NCBI GenBank assembly: GCA_032718475.1
Contig: JAUCBJ010007112.1
Coordinates: 1-36,381, forward strand
Length of the DNA stretch: 36,381 bases
Reading direction: 5' to 3'
From: Nemertoderma westbladi
Taxonomy: Eukaryota > Animalia > Xenacoelomorpha
Shown: positions 1,471 through 35,114 of the stretch, piece after piece
How the letters are laid out: each line of letters opens with the position of its first letter
How positions within the stretch are numbered: the first letter of the stretch is position 1
Notes under the pieces: generated by a model
Databases searched by the model: none
Told to the model about the DNA's origin: nothing
Seen by the model: the letters and a program-made list of their open reading frames with translations, nothing else
Position numbers and translations under genes: made by a program

Positions 1471-3303
1471 AAGAGAATTTGAAATTTTCGAGTGACTATT
1501 TTTAAACATCAATAACTTCGGTTCTACAGGGCCGTTTAATCTGAAACTTTTTTCATTGCATAGAGGATAGATTGTAGTGTGTGAAATAGGATAAAACTTG
1601 GGAAAAGACGCATGTGCACTAAGTGCAAAATGCACTTAAATAGTGAACATTTTTTCGATAGTTCAAACACTATTATTTCCAGTTCTATTCATCGTAGAAT
1701 GTTATTTTTTGGATTAAAATGTAGTTTGGAATGATTTCTAACTATAATCGTAACATTTGTTTAACTTTTTATGTCTATAAAGTGACTTAAAATGTCCATG
1801 AATATGGTCCAAAATCGCAAATATCGAGATTTATTAAATTGGATTTTTGACACTTTTAGCGACTGACACTTGATCATACACCATCGTAGATCGGTAGAGG
1901 ATAAACATAAGTTTGTTAAATAAGAGCCACCATTACGATCTGCTAAAGTGCACTTGTACAAATAAGTGTGCAAAAGTGCAAATTTTTTAATAAGGTCAAA
2001 TTATATAGTATTGGGTTCTTTTCTTTGCAGATACTTTATTTTCATATTAATATGTTGTTTAAACCTTACTGAGCACATTAGGGGATATGCGTACAAAAAT
2101 AACCGGCCCTTATGAGGCTTCGATTGGGTAAATTAATAAAACATAAGGTTGTATAGTATAATATTCTAAAAACCAGTGTGATATTAAATGCACTTTAAAT
2201 AATAAATAGAGATCAAATAACAAATGGACCACACAATTAAAAACTCGCACAATTTTGTACTTATGCAAATTGTATGTATTTAATTCCAAACATATGGAGT
2301 AAAATGAACAACATGGTTATTAAAAGTTTTACAAAATGAATAAAATAATATATAAAATATTGTGCTATTAAAAAGTTTTATTTGGTTGTGGGGGGGGGGG
2401 GGGGGGTCATTGGTTTAGGGTAAGGACCGCAAGAAACATCCCTGTACGGAGGCCCGAACTGGTTGCTGGGATACCCGGGCACATTGTATAGTGCTCCGAG
2501 CTGATTGCTGATTGGCCACACAATAAACAGCGACACTCCTCGATTGGGCGCCAACAGTTCCGAGTGGCACATAGTTTATTTTGTACTTATTATATCGCTT
2601 CAAATTAATTCAACAGTGGATATTTGGGGGAAGGGGGGAAGTTACAGTGTGCATTCGGGGGAAGTTTGGTGAACTGCATTTATGCAGTGAATCCAAACTT
2701 CCCCCTTTGATATATCATATACTTACGACATGCTAGGGTGACGGGGAAATAATTGTTACTGTCACACTTTGCATCCATTTATCCTATCCTTTATTATTAC
2801 CCCAGTCAGATAAGAGATAATAATCAGTAAAAACCAAACTAAACTGTCTTTCATGCAAACAAATTTCTAATTAAAGACGAGTGAATGACCATGACCATCG
2901 AAATAATTTTAAATATAATCGTATATCAACTATTTGGGGAGGCTTCCAAACCCGAAAACAATTATTTCGTTACATATAATATAGTAAATAACGTTGTATG
3001 TTCTTCTTCCTCTCATAATAAAATATATATATAATATCTCTGATCGCTGTGCCCTGAACATTTCACAACCAAAATGTTTCAGTGTGAAAAGTGTAGGCCT
3101 ACCACACCCCGCCCAAACAGCCGCAAACGCATAGCCAAAAAATTTATCAAAAGTTTACATACATGTTGTGTTCATGACGAGATGAGTGAAAATTGATCGC
3201 ATAATATAAAGGAAAAAATTGAGAGTCGGGCCTGGCTCTCCTCAACTTTCTTACCCAATGGATATGTTGTTGTTATAATCTAATATTGGGGCGGCTTTCT
3301 CTC

Positions 3304-4020
3304 GGAGGACGCCCATAACACTTCAAATGGTTCTGTGTCACCGTCAACAGTAGACACAAATGTTGTCGAACCATCGTATACTGATCTGATTGCTGCAATA
3401 ATTTCATCAGGAATCCCATATAATGAAAGTATGCTGAACATACGTGAGCGAGAGACTGAATCAAAGGCCTTGAAGAAGTCAACAAAGATAACAGCCAGAG
3501 GCCTGTCTTTCTTTTTTGATAATTCTTCAATTATCCTTCTAAGTGTCAAAATGGGCTCCATGGTCCCACGACCTTTACGGAACCCATTCTGATTTCCACG
3601 GAGCAGTCTCTCAATGGGATCCCTGATGCGATTTAATAGAATCCTATTGTATAGCTTTGCAGCAATCGAGATCAATGAGATTCCCCGAAAATAACCATAG
3701 AGTGTTAGGTTGCCCTTCTTGTGAACTGGCACCAACTTATTTGTTTTCATTTATTGTGGGACTCTTGTTGTTCGGTACATGTCTACTACGATGGGATATA
3801 TGAGCTTTAAACACTCAGGTATTTTAAAGACCTCAGGGGGAACACCATCTACTCCACTGGCATGATTGGTCTTAATGCTCTTTGCAGCAGCCTTAACTTC
3901 TGCAAAGGTGATATCGCCAATGGGAATATCTGGGAGTACAGACTCAGACACGTTTACTTCTATAAAGTTATCAGGCAATACCCTGTCATTATTGAAGAGC
4001 TTTTCAAAGTGGGCTTCCAA
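3304..4020 (-). pseudogene. N-terminal reverse transcriptase region of the RTE LINE
   Basis: ASGVDGVPPE, VPVHKKG..RGISL, QNGFRKGR, FVDFFKAFDSV. In-frame stop at 3751-3753; YADD region absent. Confidence 0.9.
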
Positions 4021-4162
4021 CCATTGAGGCGATCGGCTGGTGATTCAGCCTTAACCTTGGTGGTTGGTTCGCTTTTCCGCCCAGTAAGCAAATTGATCAA
4101 TTTTCATGCCTGGGATGATTACCTGCTGTCGTCAGCATCATTGATGGCATCAACCTGTTGGT

Positions 4163-5450
4163 TTATTTTATTAGCTCCTGTAGATTAACAGAGTACTGCC
4201 TGTTCAGAGACCTAGATGCACCCTTAACTACATTCTTGGCCGCTGCAGTCTGTTTGAGTCGGGACTCTTTCTGCGCCTTATGAAGATCATTTCGGCACTT
4301 CTGAATTTTGTTGTCAGTCCAGGGGGCCCTTTTCCTGTTTCGAGGGTATACAGGAACTGTTTCTGCAGCTGCTAACTTAACTGCTTCTGTAAAGGCAGTA
4401 TAGCCCTCACAGTGATCTGCCGCCTCAGAGGCAAGAGCCTCATACCTGTTGCTCAGCTGTAGTGTGAAGCTGAATCTCACACTTGGCTGTTGCAACAGAG
4501 AGGACCAGTCATGCCGCGGCAAGGCAGATTTCGTTGTTCTGCTAGCACGCAGACTAAGTCTTACCTTGGCCACAATAAGGCAGTGATCACTGGAGAAGGG
4601 TCGAAGTGTAAATGCATTACAGTCTTGTATAGAGCTCCTGTATTTCCTACGAAACAGAATATGGTCTATCTGGGACTTGTGACCACTGGGTCCACTATGA
4701 GTCCATAGCTTTCTAGTTCGCTTCTTGAACTGGGTTCCAGCCGAAAACAATCCATTTCCAGAGATAAAATCCTGAAGATGGACAGAATTTCGGTTAACAC
4801 TTATGGCTATAGGCTATAGGTGATTGATGCAGACTTGCATTAAAGTCTCCCAGGAATGTTAAGAATGCATGCTGATCCACTCCATCAGTAGCTGCTTGTA
4901 GATTGTGGTAGAAATTTTCCACCTCCTCTACAGGGGCAACACTAGTTGGAGAGTAGCACACAATCAGAACCACGTTAGGAAACTTCTTAGCCAGTCTTCC
5001 AGAACATGAGAAGTGGCAACGGATGATGCGGTTCGAGATTTGGTCTATTTTGTACAATGCTGCATGTGCAGTTGGATTTATCAATAGACCAATTCCACCA
5101 TTGCCGCTATCATCTGCTGACGCGAGGGCAAGTCGCCAACCGCCCCCCATGTCCTTAATCAGAACCTCATCAGTCTGTCCAGTCTGCATTCGGTGCACTT
5201 GTACACCCACTGCGCTAAGAGAAAGCTTATCTGCCAAGGCAGTCAGCTCACCTTGTCGCATTGGGGACCCGAGTGTTAGGGTGTTTACTGAGGCTAGTCT
5301 AGTGACTTGCATCAGATTCACGAATGGCTTTGTTGGTCGGGGTGGAACATGAGAGTAGCCTCCAACTACAGAATCCCTCTCCCCATCACAATCTGGCCTC
5401 CCTGGTGACCCAGGGTTTGGGCCAGAAAGGTCATCAGGAAAGGGACTCAA
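4163..5450 (-). pseudogene. APE endonuclease region of the RTE LINE ORF (frameshifted)
   Basis: GIGLLI, ISNRII, VCYSPT and GDFNA in 4794-5450; WTH..SQIDHIL and SDHCLI in 4163-4750. Confidence 0.85.
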
Positions 5451-5703
5451 AGAATTGTTGGCTTCTCTCTCTCCAATAGGGGGTGAGACAGGCAGCCGGT
5501 CAGGAGTTAACTGATGCCTGTGAGAGTAGTAGATAAAGCATAGTCCTCACGATAGTCCTCCCTAAGCCTGGGCTATGCACATTCCATTGAGAGGGGTATT
5601 AAAAATGTCAAATTCCGGTGCTAAATTGCGATGCGCGCGCCATATGTCACCATCGGCAGTTGCCATCAACCAATCGTAGCGTAGCCTAACCCCGCGATGT
5701 CCA

Positions 5704-5936
5704 ATATTATATTATATCGATTGCCAACTCAACGATTTACCCTCCGCTAGCTAGTGCTACTCCTCGACGGCACCACCACCACCACCGCTGCATACTGTAT
5801 ATGATGATGAGAACAACGACGTGGCCATCTACACGCATCGTGCATATACCCTCCCTCGATATTATATATTATATTATATCGATTGCCAACTCCACGATTT
5901 ACTCTCCGCTAGCTAGCGCTGCTACTCCTCGACGGC
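5704..5936. repeat. Direct repeat, two copies of about 70 bp (5704-5771, 5866-5936)
   Basis: atattatattatatcgattgccaactc..acgatttac.ctccgctagctag..tgctactcctcgacggc occurs twice with few differences. Confidence 0.85.
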
Positions 5937-6350
5937 TGTCACCAAACCAACAAACCAACCAACCAACCTACCAGTATGATACATGAAATTCTGCCACGCG
6001 TCAACTACACGTTCTCGTATTTCCATAGTAGTTACTCAAGCTAACCATTTCCTCAGCATCTGTGACATATTGAAAGGCTACTACTACTAACATTATACTG
6101 TGCGTTTTTTATTATAATTATTGATTATTATTACACACAACCCAATGATTCATATTCTTTCGCATATTTCCTATCCACGCAACCAATCATCCACATTGCA
6201 ACCCATCTCTTTTCTTATTCGTTCATTATGCCACATCCCACTCTTCTACGTTGACTATGCCACATCCACATCCCCACGTATTCAGAAATTTATATATAAC
6301 TGTAGGTTTTTAATAAAATTCATCACTTGTAATCTTCATGGTAATATATT

Positions 6351-7985
6351 TTTTTATTTATTTCTTTATTCCATCGGGCCGAAACCCATTGTACATAGGC
6401 CTACCTACAATATGCACGATATACATACAAAAATCAACACAACACAATAAATTGCACAATTGATTATTACTGGGTTATGTACCCAAAACTCGTTTCCATC
6501 TATCAATAATGACAGAATCATCTTTCGTAACTAGATAACAAGCTGCTACAATTCGATTATTTGACTTGGTTACACGATTATACATAGAATACATGTTACT
6601 ACGTAACACCGATTTAAATGTATTTACTCTGTTAGCGACAAAAAATGTGTCGGCATCCTCAGTTCGGCCATATTTAAATAGTAACCTAAACGCAGTATTA
6701 TTTGCAACCTTCAGCTTGCGCTGACATTCTACTCGAAAAATAGACCAAAGTGCACAACAATATATATTATAACAAAAAGCCTTAAAAAGCACCACTTTTA
6801 CAGATTTCGAACATACTGAAAAATGCCGAGCTAACTGGTTACCACGACAATATATGCCACTTCTCAGACGCATCATGTCTGGTTCGTCTGACAAGTCACA
6901 AGATATTGTGTGTCCCAAGTACTGCACCTGCCGAACACACTCTAATGGCTTACCATTAAGAAATACATCTCCTGCACGTCCAAATTTATATGGTAAGAAA
7001 TACATGCAGTTAGATTTAGAAGGATTAAATAGGATATCAAATTCCAAACCGTACTGTTCACATATCTTAACCAATGCTCTTAGCCCAAAGATACTGGGAG
7101 ACAATAAACACAGATCATCGGCATAAAACAAATGATTTAACAATAACGTACCTAACCGACAACCAACGTTAATATTATTAAGACGCACACTCAATTCATT
7201 AACATAAATATTAAACAATAACGGGGATATTAGGCTCCCCTGCCTCACACCATTTGAAACATAAAAACTATCAGACACTGAAGAACCCCAAGACACCGTA
7301 ATAGATTGTCTACTATACCAATAACTTAACAACCTAACTATTCCAATTGGAACTTTCATATCAATTAGTTTACGAAATAACTTAAAATGCGAAACACGAT
7401 CAAATGCTTTTGAAGCATCCAGAAAGGCAGAGTACACGGGTGAGTCTTTAGAGATATACAATTGCACAGTTTGTTTCAAAGTGAAAATGCATAAATCCGT
7501 ACCCAAACCCGTACTAAAACCAAACTGATTATCTTCTATAGACGCACAGCGAGATATAGTGTCAAAGAAACAGGATTCAGTAACCTTAGAACCACTATTA
7601 GCTGATGCTACGGGTCTATAGTTAGAATCATCGTTCAGACTACTATTCTTATCTTTTAGCACCGGAGATATACATAAACTCATAAATGAATCAGGTAGAT
7701 AACCATGAGCAATAAAGCTATTAATCAACAGGGATACGAGTACTGTTAATTTATTACTCCCAAATATATAACTCTCTGGAAAAATATTATCAGGCCCTGC
7801 AGCCTTCCCTATTTTTAAACCTTTAATAACGGAAGTTACATCACTAACGGAAATATGTACTCTATCTGAGCCATCCCATTTATCAAAAACGTCCTTAACA
7901 AAATCAATGTCATCTTTATTCGACGGCACAGAATTAAAAATAGTTTCATATTTACATTTAAACAAATCAGCAATATCATCAGAGT
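6351..7985 (-). mobile_element. 5'-truncated RTE-X-like LINE
   Basis: RT ORF, short 3' UTR and an AATAAA/A-rich tail ending near 6351. Candidate TSD TATATT at 6345-6350 and 7986-7991. The clade call rests on motif recognition only. Confidence 0.85.
6475..7965 (-). CDS. Non-LTR reverse transcriptase, N-terminally truncated, uninterrupted 496 aa
   Basis: KAAGPD, NYRPV, QFGF, FLDASKAFDRV, GVRQGSLISPLLFNIY, FYADDL, YLG. Confidence 0.93.
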   Translation of the reverse strand: MFKCKYETIFNSVPSNKDDIDFVKDVFDKWDGSDRVHISVSDVTSVIKGLKIGKAAGPDNIFPESYIFGSNKLTVLVSLLINSFIAHGYLPDSFMSLCISPVLKDKNSSLNDDSNYRPVASANSGSKVTESCFFDTISRCASIEDNQFGFSTGLGTDLCIFTLKQTVQLYISKDSPVYSAFLDASKAFDRVSHFKLFRKLIDMKVPIGIVRLLSYWYSRQSITVSWGSSVSDSFYVSNGVRQGSLISPLLFNIYVNELSVRLNNINVGCRLGTLLLNHLFYADDLCLLSPSIFGLRALVKICEQYGLEFDILFNPSKSNCMYFLPYKFGRAGDVFLNGKPLECVRQVQYLGHTISCDLSDEPDMMRLRSGIYCRGNQLARHFSVCSKSVKVVLFKAFCYNIYCCALWSIFRVECQRKLKVANNTAFRLLFKYGRTEDADTFFVANRVNTFKSVLRSNMYSMYNRVTKSNNRIVAACYLVTKDDSVIIDRWKRVLGT

Positions 7986-8033
7986 TATATTGATACCATA
8001 TCTAATTTTTTTTGGTCTCACTCTGAAATTGTG

Positions 8034-8947: not shown

Positions 8948-9685
8948 ATGGATAAAATAAAAATATGTTGTTCATTCTGTCATATGAATGTAACTAGACA
9001 TAATTACTTACGCCACCTACGGTCACATTTTGAAGGTTATTCTTGTTTTAAGTGTCATGTCATGACTTCATGCAGCGAAATTTGTAAACGACATGAATCA
9101 ACTACTGGTTGTAAAGAAATGGAGTTCCGCACCTATCAATTGACTTGTTCTACCTGTAAAAAAAAGAGTATACATATGACAATTATCTACGACACGATTG
9201 TCACTTGAAATGTTACTACACAAGAAAGCGTAAATCTCTGCAACATAAAAATATATTATCTAGAAAAAACTTAAGGGTGGCTCTTGGTACATGCGCAACA
9301 ATTTTTACGCGGGAACAAGAAGCTCACGATAATCGTCTTGAAATTTATGTCCACGACCTCCCAACTTCTAGAGATTATCCCGATGTAGAAACAGCATTAA
9401 CGCAAATTCGAGGTAATATTCTTCAGTTAATATTAGACAGATTGAAAGAAATGAATGTTCTTAGACTGTGGTTAGGTCTAAATGTATTAATGTACAGATC
9501 ACATTTTTCAGAAGGTGAGCAATTGGAAACCTTTTATTTTAATTCTTCCGGTGGTGCTATTAATACTGTAGATTTATCACAAAGTTTTGACACATGGTTT
9601 GAGTATGTGGTGGGAAATATATTACAAAAAATAGCCATGTTTAACACACGTGGCTCCGGGTGGCGTATTAAATCTTTATTAAGGG
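8948..9685 (+). pseudogene. pPolB-A 5' part (Zn-finger region to GSGW motif)
   Basis: CxxC-x9-YLRHLRSH finger; frameshift in the A8 run at 9158-9165; ends NTRGSGWRIKSLLR at the LTR insertion. Collinear with the pPolB-B N-terminus. Confidence 0.85.
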
Positions 9686-10913
9686 TGTAAAAGCTTTTAC
9701 TGAATTGTCCGGTTATTTTTCCTTATTTTTCCCGTAAAGTACTCTGTAGTTGGTTTACCAGGCATAAAAAGGCCGTGTCCTTGCTGTACTGGTGTTTTAG
9801 CGGACATAAAAGCTATTTCTTCTGTATTTGTACTTTAGAGGACATAATCCGTAATTCCGTGACGTAAAAGCTCGATACTCTTGAAAACAGTGTCGCTACC
9901 ATGACGACGGCTAGCAGCTGATATTGCCACGTCGACGTTTCTTTGTTTCTCTGTTCTCTCGTTGTTCATGTTGACCAATCAGAGCGTTTGTGATCTCTGT
10001 GTTGGAGGTATATACAGAAACTCAGTAGTTCAGTGTTATGTTTTTGTCCAGAGCCTAAGAACCGGCTTTGGCACCTCCGTGTTTTAGTTTTTAGTCTTAC
10101 ACTAGTAGGTTTAATTATAAAGGGCATATATCCTTTAACGCACCTACCTGACTCATGGAATCACTGCATACTGATGACTGATGTCTGCATACTGCAGTAC
10201 TGCATACACTGCATACTGTGTAACATTGTGCATACCTTTATATTGTTATACTGCTATTTACCGTCAGTTCTTCATAATATGGTTGATGAATAATTATATT
10301 TGGAATAACGATAAACAACCCCGAAACCCAATGTTCTTGATATACCGAAGGTAAGAGAGAAGGGTTACAGATAAACGATTGTGACTTATGTTAAAGTGGT
10401 TTGAAGTGAATCTAATGTTATTTGATAGACCCTACATGAGCCAGTCTGTGTTCCTTTTATATGTGACTAAAATCAGTGAAGATCGGCAGATAAGTGTGCA
10501 GTATTGTGCAGCATTGTGTATGAGTGAGTCTGTTAAAGAAGCATTCCTAAAGAATGCGCCATATATGTGAATTATAATTAAGCCATATCGTTGTGAGTGG
10601 TTTAAGTCATAACTCTGTTTATATAGATAAAGCGCCACGTCCTAAAGGAACTGTTAATATTCCCGAAGGTGAATAATATTGTCAGAGATTATATAATACT
10701 GTCAGTCGAATAATACATTAGGCTTACATAGCAATAAAATTAAACCGTCGAACCCAATCTCCCGGGAATTTCCAGCGGGTGAATGGTCGCGCACGGATTG
10801 GTTTCGACTAGTGTAGTGAATCAAATACTTGTCATAGACTAAAAACTGATTTAATATCTAGAAGACATCTTAATTTGGTGGGTTAAACTGCCAAAGGTCT
10901 GAAAGCGCGAACA
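9686..10913 (+). repeat. 5' LTR of BEL element 1
   Basis: TGTAAAAGC...GCGAACA. CCAAT at 9975, TATA-like at 10009, TCAGT at 10022 and 10030, AATAAA at 10733. No difference from the 3' LTR noticed. Confidence 0.96.
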
Positions 10914-10980
10914 TTAAAGGATATAGCTTCTTTGTTGCAGTAAGCAATAAAGTTGAAAGTACCGGTCAACCGGTAAACCT

Positions 10981-11110
10981 GAACCGGTACATCTGTAGGT
11001 CAGTAGGCTCAACCGTTAGAACCGGTACATCTGTAGGTCAGTAGGCCCTACTGCTAGAACCGGTACTTCTGTAGGTCCATAGGCCTAGCTGTCCTAACCG
11101 GTACTTCCGT
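10981..11110. repeat. 38-bp tandem repeat, about 4 copies
   Basis: aaccggtac(a/t)tctgtaggtc..taggc units starting at 10981, 11019, 11057 and 11095. Confidence 0.85.
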
Positions 11111-11199
11111 ATAAGTACACTAGTATTATTCGATTTGATTATTGCATACCGGTAGGCTGTTTAAGGGATTAGGGATTGATCACCCCTTATACCTTTATA

Positions 11200-11840
11200 T
11201 GGTTTACTTATTTCTGTCAGTTTTGTTTGTTTGTAGGCCAGTATTGAACAGAAGGCGTGTAAACCTGATCAGATTGTACAGACAATTTGTAGGCTGAGCT
11301 GTTGTCTGATTGCTGTTAAGTCCGAACGAATTGCAGTGTGTGTAGAGCACTTGTCCGATTAAGTACGGTTAGGAAGTAGGGGCAGCCAATGCGGTAGGGT
11401 AAACCCCCAACTAAAGAATAAGTCGCACTACTGGGTTAGAGCGCATACTCCCTAATCATTTCGGAGTCTGCATGTCCTGTGGTTTATTTAGGCTTGAGAG
11501 TGGTCTGCCATCGTTTAGTCTGTACTTTGTTTGTGTAAGTCTGTACGGGTAGCGTATAATTTTATTTAGATAATTTGTAGGCTGGATAGTTGTCTGGCTG
11601 TTATTAGGTCTGAACGGATTGCCGCGTGTGTAGATCATCTGTCCGATTAAGTACGATTAGGCAGTAGGGGCAGCGAACGCTGTAAGGTAATCCCCCAACT
11701 AAAGAATAAGTCGCACTACTGGGTTAGAGCGCATACTCCCTAATCATTTCGGAGTCTGCATATACCGTAGTTTGTTTAGGCTTGATAGTAGTCTGTCAGT
11801 GTTCGGTCTGTATTTTGTTTGAGTAGTTTGTACGCGTAGC
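11200..11840. repeat. 288-bp tandem duplication, about 2.2 copies
   Basis: gtccgattaagtacg...ccccaactaaagaataagtcgcactactgggttagagcgc at 11353 and 11641. Confidence 0.85.
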
Positions 11841-12789
11841 GTAATATTTATTATTCAGAGTTTATGCGATTATCCGCAACATTCAAGTCCCCAAGTTTGT
11901 TCCTACAGTAATTGTGTTTGTTATACATACCGCTATAGTTAAATTAACCCCGGTACTACACGGGCTGCTCGGCGTAGGTCAAGACTGGTGATTTTGTGCA
12001 TCGGTCACTCCAGCAGATGCCGTGGTTCTTTTAGCTGTTCAAGTATATTTAACTACTGATTATTTGTTATACAAGTACTTGTACCTAATTTAGGGTTTAG
12101 TGTACAATACTTTCCGAAGTAATTATTGTAGGCATTATATTTGTGTTGTAAAGTGGTTGATAGGCACATTCGATTAGCTCTATTAACTTCTAGGTAGGAA
12201 CACTCCGTGATACATAACGTAGAACCTATAGCGATACGGCTATAGGTCGTCAGGCGGTGGTATTTTCCTATCTAGACAACGCAGTGTATTTACTACTACT
12301 TATTATTTCAAATACCGTAGTACCCTGTCCGCTGTGATAACCAGTTTTCTAACCCTTTGTTAGGCTGGTTTGTAGACTTCTTGTAAAATTACCCTAAAAA
12401 TTCGTATTTTGTGTTTTTTGTAAATTTTTGTGTTTATTTAGAGATTGTAATCTCAACCCGAATTGTACGTAATTTGTAGTATAAGTAACTTAGGTAAATT
12501 AGTAATATTTGTTTTAGTGTCCTATAAGTAACACTTCACTGAAAGCGCACCGCTTTGTGTAGTGATTACTCCCCAGAAATAATAACATTTATTTCAAACA
12601 TTGACAAAACCCATTAAAACGGGTATATATATATTATAAATCAAATCTAACGATTTATAAATAGTAGGCCTACCATACAACCATTAGGTCTCAATATCAG
12701 TTGGATTATTGCTTAAATAACGGTAATAAAGTAAGTTAAAGTAACCAAGTAACCCTAAAGTTCAGAAATTCAGTTATTTTAAAATAATT

Positions 12790-13085
12790 GATATACCGGT
12801 ATTTATGATAGGCCTATTATCTTTATTTCTATAATCTAGGCTGAAATTATACCGGTACGTGTAATTAATTCTATTTCAGAATTATATATACTACAAACTG
12901 TAAGCTGTATACCGGTATTCCGATAGGCCTATTATATTTTTATATATATTTGTGCTAAAATTATACCGGTATTCTGAGATAAACCTAGTCTGTAATAATA
13001 CTTATATAGTTATATATACTATAAGCATACCGGTATTCTAATATATTATATATATCACGCTACACTGAGTAGCAGTACCGGTAAT
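12790..13085. repeat. Degenerate AT-rich repeat of about 57 bp anchored on TACCGGTA
   Basis: TACCGGTA recurs six times at 50-65-bp spacing. Confidence 0.65.
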
Positions 13086-13169
13086 TAATTACTAGGCTAG
13101 CAGTTAATACTGAGTTACTAGACTTGCTCAGACTGTAATACAGCAGTAGACATTCAACTGTACACAAAC

Positions 13170-14090
13170 ATGTCTGACGCAAAGCAGAACCTGTCAGACA
13201 GTCTACTAGATACAACGGAGAGTGAAGCGACATTAGAGAAACGGCCTGCTCAACCGCAGCCACTACAGACCTATGCGGTAAGAACTAGAGTAGGTTGGTA
13301 CCTTACTGGACCTTCCGGTAGAACGCTCAGGGAAAGACTGCTTCAAGATCGCGTCTGCCAGATGAGTGAATGGGAAGATGATACTAGTGAGGGAGACGAC
13401 CCAACTGAGGGAACACCACACTCCTCAGATAATGACAATCTTAGCTCCAATGTAGATCAATGGAGATATTGCCCCAAGAAGTTTAATCCAACGGACATCG
13501 CTTCCAGAGGAGCAACTCCTCAAGAACTGACAGATACTACAGACCGATTAGGTGAACCCGACTTCCTGAGTAAGGAGAATGAATGGCCTCCCCATCTTAC
13601 TCCGACTGAGATTATACCAGCCAAGGGAGCGGAGAAAGTCGAACCTGAAACCCGGACGTGTGGATCGGAGTTATTTGAACCCGGGATAGATCTGTCGGTA
13701 TTACATGTTGCCAGGGACGACGCCGTGGATCTGGGCCTCCCCACCGCGAGTGGATCCTTCATGAAGATCAGAGAGAGCGATTGGAGCTCTGGAACATCAG
13801 ACGTCTCGCAGGGACTCTCACCTCTCCTGCAGAGAGCGACGGACCACTATAGCTCCTGGAATCGGCTTTGTGACGCCGTCATATACTTTGAGCGATGTTT
13901 CTATCGTCACTATTCCAGGACGAAGAGGAAACCTGGAATTGTATTCAGGATGCAGCGACTCAATCACCCAGTCGGTCGTTTGTGTTTATCGGAAGGGAAT
14001 GGAGGACTCTCCGGAAACTGTGGAAGGCAAGATTCTCTTCCCACGACCACCTCCCTAATCCTTCAAACATCTAGGGACTCCATAACGTAA
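13170..14090 (+). CDS. Internally deleted BEL/Pao pol-derived ORF (306 aa)
   Basis: AVRTRVGWYLTGP (BEL protease C-terminal motif), WRYCPKKFNPTDIASRG..GEPDFL (BEL RNase H C-terminal motif) and YSSWNRL. No RT or integrase core. Confidence 0.8.
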   Translation: MSDAKQNLSDSLLDTTESEATLEKRPAQPQPLQTYAVRTRVGWYLTGPSGRTLRERLLQDRVCQMSEWEDDTSEGDDPTEGTPHSSDNDNLSSNVDQWRYCPKKFNPTDIASRGATPQELTDTTDRLGEPDFLSKENEWPPHLTPTEIIPAKGAEKVEPETRTCGSELFEPGIDLSVLHVARDDAVDLGLPTASGSFMKIRESDWSSGTSDVSQGLSPLLQRATDHYSSWNRLCDAVIYFERCFYRHYSRTKRKPGIVFRMQRLNHPVGRLCLSEGNGGLSGNCGRQDSLPTTTSLILQTSRDSIT

Positions 14091-14599
14091 CAACATATGG
14101 AGTGGGTGTGTGACTCTATTATTTTATATTATTTTATTATTTTTATATTTCTGTATGTATTACTATGTAATTTTATTATAATCGTTTTCTTTAATTTTAT
14201 TCAGTAGAATGTTATTTTAGCGATTATTTAGTAGATTAGTGCAATATATATTCGCGTTTATTACTTAATTACATATATATTATATTTAATGAGACGGCAA
14301 GAAATAATTCTTTTTCTCTTTCCTTACTGTCCGTATTACATTACAAATACGTAACTACAGTAAGATGAAATGTCCGTACTTATTAAAGTACAATAAAGCC
14401 ACTACTATATTCAAGTATTATTGGTAGGCAGAGTATTAGGAATGCAAAGTTCAGATCCTCGTGTCTCGGCTAAACCAAGCTCTGGGTAGACCTTGGAAAC
14501 GACTTGCCTCTTCACACTGACATTGCTTCGTGCGATATTGCTCTCATACCGTATATTAAATAATACATATAGTAGCGTGATGTCCCTTTAACAGTAGCG

Positions 14600-14960
14600 T
14601 ATAACGCAAAATAAATCTGTTAAACCCTTTGACCATCTGTAATTCTAGTCGATTAAGATATCGTGGCACCCACCGATATACTTGAAAGACAAATTATAGA
14701 ATCAATGGTTAACGTCACCAGACAAGTTCTGGAATAAATCGGTGCCCATCTCAAATATTAATTATTTAATATTTGCAAATCTAATACGTCAAAATCTGTA
14801 AAATTCAGATCCTTTAACAATTCTAGTCGATTAAGATATCGTAGCATTTACCGATATTCTTAAAAAGACAATTGTCATAGAATTAAGGATCTTGTGTCCC
14901 TAGACATGTTCTAGAATCAAAATATGTCCATTTAATTATCAAATAATAAAATTTCAGGGA
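14600..14960. repeat. Diverged 178-bp tandem duplication
   Basis: ttctagtcgattaagatatcgt at 14643 and 14821, with similar flanks. Confidence 0.75.
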
Positions 14961-15718
14961 ATAAATTTAAATTCATGTCTTTTAATGAATTTAATAAATT
15001 GCCATTTTACGCAATTTATAACATTCCCAAAATTCCATTAATTAATAGATCAAGGGAGCGGAGATTTATATTATTATGCGTATGCGTGTACGAAAGTCTC
15101 CCAAACATAGTCAATAGCCGATAAAATTCATAAAGTCATGTATAAAACCGAACATTGACTATTAAAGAATACTATTAAATAACATCCCAGATCTGTATGC
15201 ATTGGAACTACCCTAATTCTACCGCTAGCTTTGCATAATGTCACCATAGCAACAACCACGCTAGAATTAGAATTGAGTTAACGAAAAATAGAAAGCCTGT
15301 CCCATTGAATAGCATAGGGAATAAATAGCGCACTACTAGTATCCAAGGATACATAATAATACAGTGACATTCTGGAAGGCATTGACTAACGGACAAATGG
15401 CCCGAATGTGTGTAATTTGTGACAAGTTGTGCGTGTGGTATTTGTGAGTTTATAGGTGAATGTTACTGCTAAGGTGTGTTTACAGTAGCTAGTCGCAATC
15501 GTAAAAGTAACCTAACTCTCCAAGGAAAACCTGAAGTACATCTAAGTCTTTGGGACGGACAGTCGAGTGACTTGTGTCGGTTGTCGTTGTCGTTGTGCGG
15601 CTACGTCGTTGGCGAAAGTACAGCGGCGACGACACATCGGCGCTGAGGATCTCGTACTGTCCGGGGGTTAATTGGAGTAGGCAGCGACGCTTGCTAGCCT
15701 GAATATAAACTCCTTATA

Positions 15719-16051
15719 ATGTGGATAAACTCATATATAGCAGACATGATGGAGTTGATAGCAGATGTTCTTGGTATCGGGGAGCGATATACTCTACTTT
15801 TGCAAGCGTTTGTTGATAGCTTAATACGCGGCGACGTTAGTCCAACTGCTGCGGAGGACGATGGTCGTTATATCGAACCGCCAATGTCCCAAGAGCAGCT
15901 CGCGCGCGAGTTGGACTATAGAAAATTCGCTGCTCGATATACGCAGCGTAATGGTACGTATATGGTCTTCTTAACCACTGGTCATCCTATCGATTTACAC
16001 AATACTGACTATGTCGACTATATATCCTGCCCAGCGGAGTCGGAACCATAA
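15719..16051 (+). CDS. Hypothetical 110-aa ORF in the 3' internal region of BEL element 1
   Basis: ATG-started ORF with protein-like composition; no recognisable domain. Confidence 0.35.
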   Translation: MWINSYIADMMELIADVLGIGERYTLLLQAFVDSLIRGDVSPTAAEDDGRYIEPPMSQEQLARELDYRKFAARYTQRNGTYMVFLTTGHPIDLHNTDYVDYISCPAESEP

Positions 16052-17157
16052 ACTGAAATCCGAATGCGAAAATTCTATTCGAAATCGACTCGAAAGAAAA
16101 GGCACTAAAGAAACAAATAAACGCGGTAACTCCAACGTATATTTGGAATTCTTGATAGAATCATTGTAACTACAAATAAATATCATCCGCGTTTCCCCTA
16201 CCAGACGTGCGTCTTGGGTATTATTACGGTAAATGCCCTAGACCCAGCCAATAAACGGAAAGACATAAACATCCACGGAAACGTTGTGTTAAATACAGTT
16301 GTGTTCGTTATATTTACTGGAGTTTCGAGCGAAACTTGTTTGACGTATCACCTATGCTCACTCGGCTCTAACGATCCTAGAGTAAACCTACGATCAGAGT
16401 CCCGGAATACTCGGTCAAACCTCCTCATTCCTTAGTTGGACCTCAGACCTGCGATCCTGGTGGTGGCGCGGATCCTCGCGGACGGTATTCACTGTTCAAA
16501 GATCTAGTGCTACCCTAACAATTAATCGGTAACACTCCGACAGTGATTTCTAGCTAGCCGCCCATCTTACCTAGCCGGATTGTGACGCGGACACCTAATA
16601 TCACTATCCAACCGTATGGTCGTCCCCGTTTAACGCGATACAACCCCTCATCAAGGTGAAGGAGAGCTTTGTACGAAACGAGTTAAACGCTATTCTATAA
16701 AGATCAAAAGAGAAACCTGCGTTTGTTCAGATAAACGTAAGTTATAACAGTAAGTCCAGTCGATAAACGAATTGGCCTTATCTCAATTCGATTGGGAAAT
16801 CCAGAATCTCTAAGAAGTTATCGAACTTGGACGATCCTATTCTCTGCGAGAGTTTTTGGATGAACGTATCCAGCTACGAGCGGAGGAAAATCAGCTCGAG
16901 GAGAAGCATATCGAAACGGCAGATACCTCGACCATAAACCTACACCTTCTGATGCAATCATATTGCACCCTTCACCCAGGAGTTATGGCCCTCCTAGTAA
17001 AGTGGCTCCCCCCAAAGAGAAAAAGACTCTTGCTAGCCTCAAAAAACTGCGTAAACGCCGTCTGCGTAAGAAAGACTAACTGTTTAGAGTATCTTTATGT
17101 TTTAGAAACTGTGATTTTTATATTTTATAGACTGAAAATCCCATTTTCTGGGAGCGG

Positions 17158-18385
17158 TGTAAAAGCTTTTACTGAATTGTCCGGTTATTTTTCCTTATTT
17201 TTCCCGTAAAGTACTCTGTAGTTGGTTTACCAGGCATAAAAAGGCCGTGTCCTTGCTGTACTGGTGTTTTAGCGGACATAAAAGCTATTTCTTCTGTATT
17301 TGTACTTTAGAGGACATAATCCGTAATTCCGTGACGTAAAAGCTCGATACTCTTGAAAACAGTGTCGCTACCATGACGACGGCTAGCAGCTGATATTGCC
17401 ACGTCGACGTTTCTTTGTTTCTCTGTTCTCTCGTTGTTCATGTTGACCAATCAGAGCGTTTGTGATCTCTGTGTTGGAGGTATATACAGAAACTCAGTAG
17501 TTCAGTGTTATGTTTTTGTCCAGAGCCTAAGAACCGGCTTTGGCACCTCCGTGTTTTAGTTTTTAGTCTTACACTAGTAGGTTTAATTATAAAGGGCATA
17601 TATCCTTTAACGCACCTACCTGACTCATGGAATCACTGCATACTGATGACTGATGTCTGCATACTGCAGTACTGCATACACTGCATACTGTGTAACATTG
17701 TGCATACCTTTATATTGTTATACTGCTATTTACCGTCAGTTCTTCATAATATGGTTGATGAATAATTATATTTGGAATAACGATAAACAACCCCGAAACC
17801 CAATGTTCTTGATATACCGAAGGTAAGAGAGAAGGGTTACAGATAAACGATTGTGACTTATGTTAAAGTGGTTTGAAGTGAATCTAATGTTATTTGATAG
17901 ACCCTACATGAGCCAGTCTGTGTTCCTTTTATATGTGACTAAAATCAGTGAAGATCGGCAGATAAGTGTGCAGTATTGTGCAGCATTGTGTATGAGTGAG
18001 TCTGTTAAAGAAGCATTCCTAAAGAATGCGCCATATATGTGAATTATAATTAAGCCATATCGTTGTGAGTGGTTTAAGTCATAACTCTGTTTATATAGAT
18101 AAAGCGCCACGTCCTAAAGGAACTGTTAATATTCCCGAAGGTGAATAATATTGTCAGAGATTATATAATACTGTCAGTCGAATAATACATTAGGCTTACA
18201 TAGCAATAAAATTAAACCGTCGAACCCAATCTCCCGGGAATTTCCAGCGGGTGAATGGTCGCGCACGGATTGGTTTCGACTAGTGTAGTGAATCAAATAC
18301 TTGTCATAGACTAAAAACTGATTTAATATCTAGAAGACATCTTAATTTGGTGGGTTAAACTGCCAAAGGTCTGAAAGCGCGAACA
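17158..18385 (+). repeat. 3' LTR of BEL element 1
   Basis: Copy of 9686-10913 at offset 7472; the ORF-track translations of both copies are identical. Confidence 0.96.
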
Positions 18386-18390
18386 AAGGG

Positions 18391-20561
18391 TTGAAATTAA
18401 ATTAGCTGAATCTAAGTGTAGGTCATTACTATATAAGGGGCATGGATATATGGAATTACCTAAGGCTTTATCAGCTAAAAAATGTACAATAAATATACAA
18501 ACAGCTGATAATGATTGTTTCAAATGGGCTATTATATCCGCAAAATTTGGTAGCAAAGTGAAAAATAATAAAAACCATACTTCATCGTACAAAAATTATA
18601 TGAGTCATTTCATTTTTGACATTGGGAACAAAGATTATCCAACAGAGTGGCAGTTAGCGATTAAACTTTTTGAAAAACAAAATTCAAAATATATAATTAA
18701 TTTACTATTTTGGAATAACGACAACAAACGCACCCCTGTATCTATATTAAGACAACCTCCGTTTAGTAAAATTACACCTGATAAACAATTATTAAATATA
18801 TTACTTGTAGTAAAAAATAACAATGTACCTAAACTGAATCATTATGTTTGCATAACTAACTTGAATCGATTGCTGAATACGAGAGCTCTTCATACCCAAG
18901 GTAGGCAATATTCTGAAAGGTGTTTGACACATTTTTTTCGAGCAGAAGTTCTTCTTCGACACTGTCTCATATGCTACCAAGGAATAAGTCAGCGCGAGAA
19001 ACTACCTAATAAAAAAAGAACACACATTAGTTTTACAAATTTAGATAGAACCTTATCCCCATTGTTTGTCACCTACTTTGATATAGAATGTATCTTACAA
19101 CCTTCAGTTAATAATCAATTTATACAGGAGCATATACCGTGTGCGGTGAGTTATTTAATTGTTCCCAATAGTGAATTAATTGATGCTCCAAAATGTCATT
19201 TGAAAACATTTGTAAAGACAAATAATAATAATTGTATTCAAGATTTCTTAGATTCATTATATACTGATTTAACTGAATTATGTTGTTGGTCAGACATATA
19301 CACTCATAAAACTATGCCATTTACTAATATTGATTTTGTAAATTTTGAACAAGCAAAATTTTGTTTCTATTGTAATGTTACTTTAAATAATAATGTAGGG
19401 AAAAACAGACACCATTCACATATTACTGGTAAATATATTGCAGCAGCCTGTAATAGTTGTAACCGAAGTTTATCATTGAAACGAAACCTGTATGTACTTT
19501 GCGGGCACAATTCCAGTAATTACGATATACATTGTATATTACAAACCGGATTTAGAGATAAGAAATACACAGATTGTGATATAAAGGTTATACCGAGAAA
19601 TACAGAACGATATATTTCACTGAGTGCATTTATCCCAATTAAAAACACTTCTAAAAAAATTGAGTTACGTTTCTTAGACACATATCAATTTTTAAGCTTT
19701 TCTTTAAGTAATTTAGTTGAGTGTTCAACAAAGGATGTAGCGAGTCATGATATAAGCTCAATTTTACCTATCACTATACAAGAAATGAAATATTTTTATC
19801 CAAACTTGAATAACTCAACAATTAAACGGAAAGGAGTATTTCCATACGAGTACTTGACAGATATTAATAAATTTAATGATACTAGTTTGCCATCTATAAA
19901 TAATTTTTTTAGTAACTTAAGTCAAAAAACATGCACAATTGAAGATTATAGGTTTGCAAGATTATCATGGGTAGAATTCGACTGTGTGAATCTCAAAGAT
20001 TATCTTTTAGCCTATTTAAAACTCGATGTTTGTTTGCTTACTGATATATTTGAGAATTTTAGGAATGTTTGTAAACAAAATTACGATTTAGAAGTGGTTT
20101 TTTACTGTAGTATCGCATCATTTACCTATGATTGCGCGCTAAAATATAATAAATGTAAAATAGAATTAATAAAGGATTATCAGACATATAGAGATTTTAA
20201 AAAATCAATTAGGGGTGGTGTTTCATTTTGTCGAAAGCATTATATAGAATCAAATATACCAGGAACAAGTACATATGATTATACTAAGGAAGAATGCCAT
20301 ATTTTTAATATTGATTTCAACTCTTTATATTCTGGGAATTTAAGTAAAAAACTACCCACCTCGCAATTCAAAGAAGTAAGTATTAAACATTTAGAGAATG
20401 CAATTCCAGAAAAACTAATCGAGTACTTGGTAGATTTAGACATTGATGGATCTACTGGATATTTTTTAATATGTGATTTAAATTATCCTAAAGCTATTCA
20501 CGATTACAATTACCGTTAGCACCAGAGCATTTAAGTATAAATTAATCAATGCTTTCACCTT
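18391..20561 (+). pseudogene. pPolB-A 3' part (exonuclease, endoVII insertion, Pol motif A), truncated
   Basis: Joins in frame with 9685 (SLLR-VEIKLAESKCRSLLYKGHGYMELPK). Motifs YFDIEC, HHSHITGKYIAAACNSCN, HNSSNYD, KGVFPYEY, YLKLDV, IDFNSLYS. Frameshifted LPLAPE near 20510; motifs B and C absent. Confidence 0.92.
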
Positions 20562-21817: not shown

Positions 21818-21822
21818 CAAAC

Positions 21823-24800
21823 ATGCCTATGTCACCAAAATTTGTTGACTGTCTGCAATAAGAACATGCGTAGCGATCATCTCAACAAACATCTCGCAAC
21901 TCATTTTAAACAATATTCATGCGATTGTTGTGGCACCTGGTCCTCTGATAAGAAAAAGAAAACTATGGTTAGCCATCTAGCGCTATGTACGCAAGGTGGG
22001 ACTGGGTTCAGATTTATCAACGAAGAAAACACTTGCAAATGTGGCGAATCATTCACTTTATCAACCTTTAAAGAACACGATTGCTATACGCGGCTCTTCT
22101 CTCGGAAACGCAAACAATCTCAAGCGCTTTTGTCACCACCACCTCCACCAAACATTCAATCTCCAAGGGTTGGCCCTTCTACTTCAAGACAACAGACTGG
22201 AGGTTCGACCAACAACCCATTTTTACCATCCGTGAATAGCTCATCCCACAACCGCTTATTTACATATACAAACACCTTACTTACACCACAATTAGATGTA
22301 GAGTTAACACTTAGAGAAAATGAAAGTAATATTTGGGATAGAGTGAGTCAACATTTTAATAATGAATTTAATTTTATAAAAGTTTGGTTAACTATTTCTA
22401 TCTTAATGGAAAGGGAGATATTCTGAGGGTACACAATTAGAAACCTTTAGTTTCAAATCAAACGCTTCAAATAATCAAATAACTTCTAATTTAGATTTTG
22501 AAAACTGGTTTTCGCAAACTATTGAATGAATAGATGAATTAATAGCTGTCTTTGTTTGCATGGGCAGTGGTTGGAATATTGTTTCAATTAAAGAAATCAA
22601 TTTACAAATTTCTACCTTCAATCGCAACCCCTATTTCAAAGGACACGGTGGCGGTTATATTCCTAAAATTTTAGCAAAGAAGAAGTGCATTATTAACTTA
22701 GATTGTCCCATCGGGGAATGTTTTAAGTACGCAGTAGTCGCTGCTGCTTGTTATAAAAAAATTGAAAGAAAGAAACAAAACATTAGTCGATTGTCAACAT
22801 ATACTCCATACATGACCATGTTTGATTTCAGTACGATGAGTTTCCCAGTAGATAGAGTAGTAGGCATCCCACGTTTTTTAGAAACCAACCCTTTGTACTG
22901 CATTAATTTATTATTTTGGAGTACTGATAACATATTGAGCATTCTATCACAACCAGATTCAGAACATTGCTTCCAAAAAACTGTTTTACATTTAATGTTT
23001 ATAGAAGGTAATCAAAACAATCCAGGACATTACTGCGCAATTGTCAACTTAAATAGACTTATTAAAAAACAAGGACAAGGGACCAAATCCATTTGTGAGC
23101 GTTGTCTGAGAGCTTTTTATACTATTAACTCATTGCAAACTCATCGGGAACTATGTTACACGAGCAAACGACAATTGGAACAAATGCCTACACCAGATAA
23201 ATTAAAAATTAAATTCAATCGATTAGATAAGACTTTATCCCCTCCATTTGCATATATGCCGATATTGAAAGTGTTTTAGAACCTACATCAAACCCTAAAT
23301 TAGTTCAAAAGCACATTGCTAGCGCCGCCGCATTTTATACAGTACCCAATCGCGAGCTAATAAATCCCCCACAAACATCATTACAAATGTTTAGAGACAC
23401 TGGAACAAACCATGTTATAGACGATTTTCTCACTGCTCTCGAATCACACTGTAGGCAATTGTACGAGTGGACTATTTCTGGTACAAACACCAACGTTCCT
23501 AAACATTTGACTCGAGCACAGAAACAAAATTTTGATAATGCTACAAACTGTTACACTTGTAACTGTTCTCTAACCCCTGATTCACATCGACTGAATCTAG
23601 CAGAAAATCTCAATACTAAAGTTTGTGACCATAACCATCTAACGGGAGCCTATCGTGGAGCGGCATGTGTTAGTTGTAACCGCAAACTTTCTCTTAAACG
23701 CAATAAATTTTATGTAGTGCTACACAACCTGAGGCATTACGATTCCCATTTAATCTTAAAAGAAGATCTGAAAAACAGTTCTAGAACTCATTGGAAGATA
23801 AACGTAATTCCAAAGAACACTGAGACTTATATCAATATAGAAATATCATTTCCCATAGACAAAACCATGCAGACAGCAAATGCAAAAGAAAGTATTGTCA
23901 TCAATCTTCTAGACTCTCTACAGTTCATGACAGCTAGTCTAGATAAGCTCAGTAGTTATCTTACTGCAAACAATTCTGATCTAACAAAAGCTATCCCACA
24001 CACTTTGAAACAAATGAAAAATCTTTATCCCAATATTAGCAATTCCACTATTAAAAATAAAGGTATATTTCCTTATAGCTATATACAATCCATAACAAAC
24101 TTATACGAAACTCAATTACCACCAATCGAGAGTTTCTATAATGATTTACAGCTTGAAGACTGTAGCGAGCATAACTATCAGCGTGCCCAAACTAGTTGGG
24201 TTGAGCTTCAATGTCAAAACATATTTGATTATATGATGGGATACTTGGCTCTAGATGTCACACTTCTCGCGGATACTTTCCAACAGTTTAGGAAACTATG
24301 TTTCTCCAATTATGGGTTAGATCCTCTGCATTATTATACTTCACCGGGGTTAACGTACAATGCAGCATTGAAATTTACAAACAGTGAAATTGAACTACTA
24401 TCTGATGGAACTATTTACGCAGATTTTGAAAATAATATTCGCGGAGGGCTTGTATTTCTGAATACACACTTAGAGGAAGCTAATATACCTGGCAAACCAG
24501 AATACAACCCCTGTAAACCAGAAAAATACCTAATTCCTCTCGATGCAAATAACCTTTATGGTTCTGCTCTCTCTCAGAAGCTCCCCTGCAGCAATATGAA
24601 AATCGTCGATACACCAATAGATCTGGCTACAGTTGATGCCACTGGGTCAGTAGGATATTACTGCATCGTTGACCTCAAATACCCCCGAGAGATCCACGAC
24701 GAAACTGCTGACCTACCACTAGGAGCAGAAAAAATGTCCATTCCCAAGAGCTTCCTCAGTACATACATGCAAGACCTCTGGCAACATTATAATCTCAATG

Positions 24801-25875
24801 ATCAAGGGACCTATAAGCAATATAATGAGAAATATAGTAAACTGATTCTTCATCAATTCAAAAAAACTAATTATGGTATTCATATAAAATTACTCCAATT
24901 ATACTTAAAATTAGGACTTCAAATAACACAGGTGCATAAAGTATACTCATTCACTCAAAAATACATATTCAGAGACTATATCTCGTTTAATACATCCAAA
25001 CGACAATCTGCTAAAAATGCATTCGAAGTTTTATTTTATAAACTACTCAACAACTCACTCTATGGGAAAAGTCTTCAGAAGGTACGAGACCGGTTATCAT
25101 TCCGACTCTGCACATCCCCAGAACAGTGCGACCTGCTAATATCAAAACCAAATCATGAGCGCTTCATCTCATTCTCCCCCTATCTCAGTGGTCACACTTT
25201 TACTAAAGAAGTAGCAGTACTCAATCAAGCTGTATTTATTGGGGCAACCATCTTAGATCTTTCAAAGCTAGAGATGTATGATTACTATTACTGTAAACTG
25301 AAACCTCTCGAAGAAAAGCTGAGATGTGAAATTCGAGCCTTAGCCGGGGACACGGACAGTTTCTTTCTTTCGGTTACCGGTGTTGAGCACAAATTATTCC
25401 TAGAAGCCATGTTTAACTCCGGCTTTCTAGACACTTCAAATTACGATCCCTCACACCCCCTCTTTACAAATCAAAACAAGGCTTCCTTAGGTTTTTTGAA
25501 AGATGAAAGTAGAGGTCTATTATACAAATCATTTGTATTTTTGAAACCGAAAATGTATTTATTCGAGGCATACGACGCGCAACCAAAGCGGACTTGCAAA
25601 GGCATTTCAAAAAATATTGTAGCAAAGCAATTAACAAATAAACACTATTTAGACTGTTTTATCAACGAATCAACAGATTTCACAAACAATACAATATTTA
25701 CTTCTAGGGAACATCAAATGTTTACAGGGAGAATAAAAAAAAAACATTAAGTCTCTGGGATACAAAATCATTCTGGATGACGAAATATTACAGTAGACCA
25801 TATGGCCACTATATTACAGGATTAACTAAACCAACAAAAAAAACTGTAATACCACCTTATTTAGTTGCAGAATAA
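21823..25875 (+). pseudogene. pPolB-B: full-length protein-primed family B DNA polymerase with N-terminal Zn fingers and endoVII insertion, disrupted
   Basis: GSGW, YADIES (Exo I), DHNHLTGAYRGAACVSCN (endoVII), HNLRHYD (Exo II), YLALDV (Exo III), LDANNLYG, KLLNNSLYGKS, GDTDS, C-terminal LSLWDTK..PYGH. Frameshifts near 21845, 22415, 23250 and 25740; premature TGA near 22526. Confidence 0.95.
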
Positions 25876-26058: not shown

Positions 26059-26598
26059 TGTGACGGGATCTACGGATCCCGGTTTATCCGTTGGGTTTTC
26101 TATCCACGCGTCCCCGCCGTGTGTGAAAGGTAAAAGAGTTCTGATGTTGGGTAATATGTATAAAGGTATAATAGTCTGACAGTTGATATAGTATAGTATG
26201 ACACAACAGGTAATATATAATGGCGGTAGCGGACGGTGACAGAAGTCCCCGTTCCACCCTACTGATCTGACTGAGTAAACTGACTGAATAGGGGAGCACC
26301 AACAGGTAATATACTGCACGGTTGGCCTAATTGCTACCTAGTCGATGCTGTCCCCCCATTGGCTAATATCCCACTTCTCGCCCCTTCACCTTCCCTGGTG
26401 TGTTTCCCGTTCACCCCAGCTATTCTCTCTCTTGTCAGGGGAGTAACCCCTGACCCTTATTGTGTGTGTCTCCTTTGGGGCCTATTGTCCCCGTTTACTG
26501 GGCTGACACGAGGTTGATTGGTAATCAACCTCGTGCTCCCAATATTGCTTTATGGCTCACTCTATGGGTTTGTGTTAGCGGAATTGGATAAGCTAACA
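26059..26598 (-). repeat. 3' LTR of BEL element 2
   Basis: Direct repeat of 32918-33457, adjacent to the polypurine tract. Confidence 0.96.
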
Positions 26599-32667: not shown

Positions 32668-32917
32668 CTTGGTTCGCCGGGTCGCTCGTTATCGACGTGG
32701 CGTCAACGCACGTCGACGTGCGTAGCATCGACCGGCGTCGTGGGTTCGTATCGTCTCGCCGTGGCCTCGCGGATCGTTAGATCGTCGTCCGGGGTCCGCG
32801 GCGGTGTCGTTCCTTTCTCTCGACTCATCTTCGTCTTTAGTAGCTGGTCGTCACTAGCTAGGACGGTAGCTCTATTCTATCTCTGTCAGGGCAGCTGGGC
32901 GGATCTAGTTCTGTCAC

Positions 32918-33995: not shown

Positions 33996-34339
33996 CATGT
34001 AACATATATACTAATTATAGTTTTATTAAATTTAAGTAAAAAATATATTGATTTATATTATTAATAACATCTTACCTTGAGAACAATTCTCCCAAGTAAT
34101 GGGGACCCACCTCTCCTCCCGAAAAAAGACCGTAAGGCCAAGTTTTACTGCACTTGTTCTCCATTGAGTGATTAGTTGTTAAACTGGTGAATTCAATATA
34201 TAAATTTAAATATTTACTAAAGCCGCTAGATGGCATGCATTTGTGATGCGAATATTAGTTTCATATTATACTGTATAAACGTTAAAAGTCAATTATTATT
34301 TTAATAAATATAATAATAATTGTATTATAAAAGGAAAAC

Positions 34340-35060: not shown

Positions 35061-35114
35061 TAACCCCCCCTCAAGTGTGGTAACACGATAAATCCCTAAT
35101 AGTGGCGATGAATG

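Follow-up and report, generated by a model that had tools for sequence, protein, structure and literature searches.

A young BEL/Pao derivative with a primer binding site complementary to its own LTR, and probable self-priming among related animal elements

The DNA analyzed here, called the window, is a 36,381-nucleotide stretch of a Nemertoderma westbladi contig that carries two LTR elements, element 1 (positions 9686-18385) and element 2 (33457-26059, minus strand). Their features are collected in Table 1. Both are inserted in a Polinton/adintovirus-like region. By resemblance, we take the ORFs at 9160-9690, 18375-20519, 21818-25750, and 34331-34873 to be Polinton/adintovirus-type polymerase genes plus an A32-like ATPase, and element 1 lies between two ORFs that presumably belong to a single, interrupted polymerase gene of the Polinton type. 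For the ORFs flanking element 1, Pfam support was limited to a weak endonuclease VII match, and the ATPase-like ORF had a Pox_A32 match just above the cut-off. The end of a third LTR element lies on the minus strand at 35061-36381; it has a TGT start near 35060, a G-rich tract, and an integrase-like ORF that we read as gypsy-type. On the minus strand at 3280-8001, fragments of two LINE-type reverse transcriptase/endonuclease ORFs were recognized by eye.

Table 1. Features of the two LTR elements, with positions in the window
Feature	Position	Strand	Basis or remark
5' LTR, element 1	9686-10913	+	TG...CA, 1,228 bp; matches 17158-18385
Candidate promoter, element 1	10009-10034	+	TATATA at 10009, TCAGT at 10022 and 10030; putative, from motif scan
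Two acceptor-like sites, element 1	10075-10094	+	AG ends at 10087 and 10094; 33-40 nt 5' of anti-PBS; motif scan
Anti-PBS, element 1 (predicted self-primer 3' end)	10127-10138	+	Exact complement of 10914-10925
Predicted competitor for anti-PBS region	10531-10584	+	Pairs with 10108-10140; probability 0.97-0.99 in folds from 9990 and 9686
AATAAA, sole canonical poly(A) hexamer in LTR, element 1	10733-10738	+	Motif scan; ATTAAA next, at 10739
PBS without TGG, element 1	10914-10925	+	Sequence; directly 3' of LTR
Sole BEL-like coding remnant, element 1	13122-14090	+	Similarity to RNase H end of BEL/Pao Pol
Purine-rich tract before 3' LTR, element 1	17146-17157	+	Sequence; ends GGGAGCGG
3' LTR, element 1	17158-18385	+	Second anti-PBS copy at 17599-17610
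3' LTR, element 2	26059-26598	-	1 mismatch vs 5' LTR
PBS, non-TGG, element 2	32909-32917	-	Directly 3' of LTR
5' LTR, element 2	32918-33457	-	540 bp
Anti-PBS, 9 nt, element 2	33095-33103	-	0/300 shuffles, 1/57 leader controls

The two LTRs of element 1 do not differ at any position (100% identity). The element is flanked by a 5-bp target site duplication (TSD), AAGGG, at 9681-9685 and 18386-18390. The empty site is represented by one contig of run X1 that joins 9680 to 18386. Identical LTRs together with the TSD indicate that this copy was produced by a recent complete cycle. The longest internal ORF encodes 322 aa, and the ORF list holds no intact gag-pol. The coding remnant was detected by tblastn with residues 1322-1462 of protein P0016, the RNase H end of Pol (E = 5e-10). 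In addition, phmmer with an 83-aa piece of the remnant matched 95 proteins, and the Pao domain (PF05380) was present in 10 of the 11 long matches scanned. A Pfam scan of the remnant (322-aa ORF) returned zero matches, and word-based protein searches with two remnants found nothing. Because gag-pol is absent and the remnant corresponds to the RNase H end of a PF05380-type Pol, we classify element 1, on its sequence features, as a young, non-autonomous derivative of the BEL/Pao superfamily. The remnant is too short to place the element in a subclade, since outgroup BEL proteins score equally well; one subclade considered was a Sinbad/Dan-like one. The purine-rich tract resembles the GGGGAGCCA and GGGGCCGG tracts of related elements. 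Rfam gave no match to 9686-13200 at E values up to 1, and a scan of the window and of 23 loci yielded no tRNA genes. Neither element 1 nor element 2 has nucleotide similarity to the relatives' loci described below. The leader of element 1 contains a 288-bp duplication (11280-11859).

According to the ICTV profile of BEL/Pao elements (Belpaoviridae), a host tRNA primes reverse transcription from an 18-nt PBS for tRNA-Arg or tRNA-Gly (PMC8742986). Element 1 shares with this profile its TG...CA LTRs, TSD, purine-rich tract, and BEL-type homology (in the PF05380-type Pol remnant only), but it lacks an intact gag-pol, hence autonomy, and the tRNA-type PBS, there being no TGG at the site or elsewhere among the 8 bases that follow the 5' LTR. 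Instead, as a sequence-only reading of the locus had claimed with coordinates that are all correct, the 12 bases that follow the LTR are the exact reverse complement of a 12-mer that occurs once in each LTR. Pairing halts at the LTR edge, where C10139 stands opposite A10913, unpaired. Such a match is rarely reached by chance: 12 Watson-Crick pairs were reached in 2 of 5,000 dinucleotide shuffles of the LTR, and when offsets 0-5 and a junction search were included, at least 12 were reached in 0 of 300 shuffles and at 0 of 57 other leader positions. Among 6,233 internal 12-mers of element 1, two have a complement in the LTR, the PBS being one. The nested pairs thought to extend the helix (CTTAC/GTAAG and GAGCCTA/TAGGCTC) are located where described, but they carry no significance, because shuffles of the upstream flank with the core held fixed gave equal pairing in 43 of 500, 103 of 500, and 42 of 300 cases.

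Splice junctions within the element 1 LTR yield at best 7 complementary bases or fewer, and the primer of this element is therefore not junction-built. A strong splice-donor match (AAG/GTAAGA) is found at 10351-10356, about 210 nt 3' of the anti-PBS. An arrangement like the candidate promoter, TATATA followed by TCAGTGTT, also lies upstream of the anti-PBS in the related locus L006, and an acceptor similar to those of element 1 lies 14 nt 5' of a contiguous complement in L019. Run X1 contigs over 10850-11010 carry no PBS variant, although contigs drop rare variants. Over 9400-18700, run X1 has joints from 17192 to 10088 and from 10139 to 10246, each at depth 15, suggesting that a shorter LTR variant exists in which only the 52 bases around the anti-PBS are retained. 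A further contig of that run has 10121-10176 swapped for 23 letters, altering two anti-PBS positions. Fifteen viral matches to the PBS-junction pattern were rejected as chance, as their similarity to element 1 ends within about 20 bases.

Element 2 repeats this arrangement. It is flanked by a TSD (GTTGG), and its ORF at 28973-30763 holds a BEL-like Gag zinc-knuckle remnant (blastp E = 3e-6 to protein P0203). The PBS and anti-PBS stand in the same register as in element 1, and again pairing stops at the LTR edge. Pairing over 45 nt upstream is significant (2 of 500 shuffles), whereas the first 20 upstream bases alone are not (68 of 500). Tandem arrays with units of about 34, 62, and 124 bp occur inside element 2 at 26980-28950 and 30666-31231.

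Related elements were collected by using an alignment of 14 BEL polyproteins as the query. This gave 94 loci, comprising the best 80 of 562 from metagenome contigs and 14 from genome contigs; viral contigs yielded no BEL loci. Both LTR 3' ends were apparently present in 17 of the 94, and 14 of these, representing 13 families, were used after L008, L022, and L094 were left out on account of shared ends without a terminal CA. For each locus, we determined the longest complement to the bases 0-5 beyond the LTR, allowing both contiguous matches and matches formed across a filtered GT-AG junction. The controls were shuffles, other leader positions, and cross-family pairs rather than tRNA-primed BEL elements.

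A co-varying anti-PBS, as the self-priming proposal predicts, was found in 12 of the 14 relatives under the strict filter: each has an own-LTR complement of 11-14 nt that starts 0-4 nt after the LTR. Shuffles matched these complements in 0 of 300 cases for eleven relatives and 1 of 300 for L085, and other leader positions did so in 0 of 57 cases each, except for 1 of 57 in L040. The two loci that fail the strict filter, L016 and L091, reach 10 and 11, respectively, under looser splice filters run without shuffles. What the sequence-only reading had overlooked is that the primer of most relatives spans a splice junction. In 11 of the 12 positive loci, the complement comes about only when LTR segments are joined at a GT-AG junction, and in L025 it is contiguous. 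The LTR introns of the junction relatives measure 74-451 nt, and their donors are mostly GTAAGT. TGG occurs in the first 8 bases of only 2 of the 14 relatives, both of which also have a junction complement.

The letters of the pair change from family to family. In a 16 x 16 comparison, 15 of the 16 rows had their own PBS as best partner, and none of the 240 off-diagonal, cross-family cells reached 11. The families share 41-69% identity across RT-RNase H, apart from L084 and L085 at 91%; L014 and L091 have no long segment for this comparison. Compensatory changes, matched on both sides, number two in L084 vs L085 and four in L028 vs L032. Moreover, one LTR copy of L032 lacks exactly the 117-nt intron of the other, and such precise loss implies splicing of the intron out of an RNA that then served as template for reverse transcription, even if the contig merges two copies. 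A blind scan of 53 further loci found matches of at least 11 in 21 of 53 vs 20 of 106 controls, a noisy result that we did not count. The self-complement is a real feature that is common to the clade. Since most related families tested show an own-LTR match with different letters, the group likely begins copying with a piece of its own RNA.

In a tree built without named reference members, the relatives cluster with proteins of echinoderms, molluscs, cnidarians, and fish. The noisy blind scan suggests contiguous primers in one subclade, made up of loci L001, L002, L005, L006, L007, and L010, which stand beside L025 and fish proteins in this tree. The pair starts with GT or AGT in 14 of 14 relatives and in element 2. 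Two peculiarities of element 1 had also gone unnoticed in the sequence-only reading, namely its terminal base pair and its distance to the LTR end. The PBS of element 1 starts with TT while its LTR still reads AC at 10138-10139, so that the terminal G-C pair usual in the relatives is missing, and its primer end lies 775 nt from the LTR end vs a range of 44-234 nt among the 12 relatives for which this was measured. A 12-nt pair with a TT start is apparently present in L019 too, judged from a putative LTR end. An AGGAC-like motif, which may extend pairing into the leader, lies a few bases 5' of the primer in L028, L029, L032, L084, and L087 (upstream of the donor) and in the window at 10119-10126. 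L081-L094 are BEL/Pao elements within contigs filed as bacterial metagenome-assembled genomes, and these contigs are most likely host-animal DNA binned by mistake.

Folding predictions disagree with one part of the earlier proposal. In an equilibrium fold that begins at the start site it favored (10030), the PBS helix has a probability of 0.0, and forcing the helix costs 11-12 kcal/mol. The value is 0.002-0.23 in folds from 10090 and 0.65-0.99 in those from 10120. In equilibrium folds the anti-PBS itself pairs with 10531-10568, and the helix was not rescued when candidate introns of element 1 were held unpaired. Among junction relatives folded with an 80-nt lead, the helix reaches at least 0.5 in 5 of 11 when spliced vs 1 of 9 computed unspliced, and the helix of element 2 remains below 0.1. 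Because only 5 of the 11 spliced relatives reach 0.5 at that lead, the fold test discriminates weakly. Just after the candidate start site, 10035-10045 is predicted to pair imperfectly, with four G-U pairs, with 10917-10927, which overlaps the PBS; this might be a competing or a Tf1-like pair.

Taken together, the data led us to interpret element 1 as a young, non-autonomous BEL/Pao element whose PBS complements 12 bases of its own LTR and which is likely primed by a piece of its own 5' RNA cut after 10138, with enzymes likely supplied by an intact relative. We assign this reading a probability of roughly two-thirds. Self-priming in BEL/Pao, as first put forward for this locus, is partly supported, by covariation in relatives and not by the nested pairs or the fold, and priming by own RNA is probable. 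Transcription would start upstream of 10127, so that the primer would lie tens of bases inside the transcript rather than at its first base as in Tf1. This element of the original proposal fits the relatives, which need an upstream exon. The RNA would then loop and anneal 10127-10138 to the PBS, perhaps aided by nucleocapsid. A cut after the pair, possibly by the RNase H of reverse transcriptase (RT) by analogy with Tf1, would expose a 3'-OH, and the 5' piece would be extended by RT acting in trans. The register originally suggested appears workable: with no spacer present, DNA extended from 10138 would begin exactly at the final base of the LTR, whereas DNA extended from 10139 would not. Minus-strand DNA would thus begin at that base and later jump to the 3' R region. 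The progeny PBS would be copied from the primer during plus-strand synthesis, in which case co-variation is automatic and the pair keeps itself matched.

In the intron-bearing relatives, the primer would arise when the 5' copy is spliced, and the unspliced 3' copy would pass the intron to both new LTRs. Because new LTRs would not be copied from the piece that carries the spliced junction, the 3' copy allows the intron to persist. If the 3' copy were spliced, intron-less lines would result, and element 1 is possibly one of them. We lean slightly toward a broader view in which a large animal BEL/Pao clade has abandoned tRNA priming and the host spliceosome builds its primer from an intron-split LTR, the intron being removed only in the 5' copy, which is cleaved off to act as primer, and surviving via the unspliced 3' copy, with elements 1 and 2 as lines that carry a ready-made primer.

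Several other explanations deserve consideration. The pairing of LTR and leader could instead be structural, for example a splicing-sensing switch for packaging, dimerization, or translation, with a host RNA such as a tRNA fragment or another small RNA serving as primer. Competing helices are indeed predicted for both the anti-PBS and the PBS, and the accessible part of PMC6317226 describes half-tRNA primers in copia lineages. Nevertheless, all positive loci have the pair where a primer would bind, 0-4 nt from the LTR end and in the correct polarity, and a single host RNA cannot account for PBS letters that differ by family and follow the own LTR. We consider a structural role with a host primer unlikely. 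The view that the 12-base match of element 1 arose by chance in an AT-rich LTR is far less credible. When G-U pairs are allowed, 110 of 5,000 shuffles reach 12, and the blind scan, which ran over many candidate LTR ends, found 11-mers in its controls at the frequency given above. However, the shuffle counts at the fixed position (2 of 5,000 and 0 of 300) and the recurrence of the feature in element 2 and 12 of 14 relatives make coincidence very improbable.

Two further alternatives accept pairing with element RNA. The clade might self-prime while element 1 is a degenerate rider that has lost the first G of its PBS, whose helix is out-competed in the long LTR, and that is mobilized poorly or by other means. 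Its TT start alongside an LTR that keeps AC, its outlier spacing, and the unfavorable fold from 10030 would all be consistent with such decay, but identical LTRs and a TSD speak for a recent complete cycle. Furthermore, a run X1 contig reads across the LTR-PBS junction, where neither a gap nor an altered letter is listed for it, and L019 apparently shares the TT start. Decay of this kind is a little harder to credit than a structural role. Alternatively, the primer could derive from the 3' copy or a separate short RNA. Here TATAAAGG at 10116 would act as the promoter, the anti-PBS would fall in U3, and annealing to the PBS would be left to the 17599-17610 copy or to a transcript that ended early. 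A TATAA-like motif does occur directly 5' of the element 1 anti-PBS, and of the donor in L028 and L032. Yet cutting the 3' copy would presumably lose the R region needed for strand transfer, and TATA-like boxes lie about 50-70 nt 5' of the complement in L001, L002, L006, and element 2, which puts the complement inside the 5' end of the transcript there. We regard a primer of this origin as quite improbable.

Priming from the element's own 5' RNA, our preferred reading, has precedents outside BEL/Pao. Self-priming is described for Tf1/sushi elements and predicted for Tcn1 and TAR in the accessible parts of PMC6317226, PMC7175516, and PMC4600332. As described in the available sections of two of these (PMC7175516 and PMC4600332), Tf1/Tf2/Tj1 and Tf1/sushi elements likewise have no tRNA PBS, and an 11-12-nt LTR segment complements the PBS and is predicted to be cut to form the primer; the corresponding part of PMC7175516 attributes the Tf1 cut to the RNase H of RT. 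Element 1 has such an LTR segment in the priming register. However, the Tf1/sushi elements are Ty3/gypsy chromoviruses, a different superfamily, and the Pol remnant of element 1 is BEL-type rather than of their kind. The primer of Tf1 is the first 11 nt of its mRNA, whereas in the BEL/Pao relatives it probably lies 20-100 nt inside and is mostly intron-split. The need of the intron-split relatives for an upstream exon argues against the mRNA's first 11 nt as their primer. An intron-split primer is not described for Tf1/sushi self-priming in the accessible text of PMC7175516 and PMC4600332. [quoted passage not shown] By that measure element 1 qualifies and element 2 (9 bp) does not; those are plant copia and gypsy lineages, and that method took contiguous primers only.

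BEL/Pao elements are described as tRNA-primed, with a replication that is poorly understood (PMC8742986). A term search of a BEL/Pao survey (PMC3118150) for primer, PBS, and tRNA returned none of these words, the accessible part of the Sinbad paper (PMC554778) has no PBS passage, and the accessible parts of PMC3601003, PMC8220671, and PMC12451622 have none either. Within the open literature searched, which excludes subscription papers, Repbase Reports, and supplements, self-priming of BEL/Pao and a primer built from an LTR intron are unreported. If our reading is true, self-priming would extend to all three superfamilies of LTR retrotransposons, and these BEL/Pao elements would be freed from the host tRNA supply. 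In intron-bearing families, reverse transcription would be tied to host splicing, which would also show how a spliceable intron can persist in an element whose copying passes through RNA. The reading gives exact predictions for RNA ends and an annotation rule for BEL elements without a detectable PBS.
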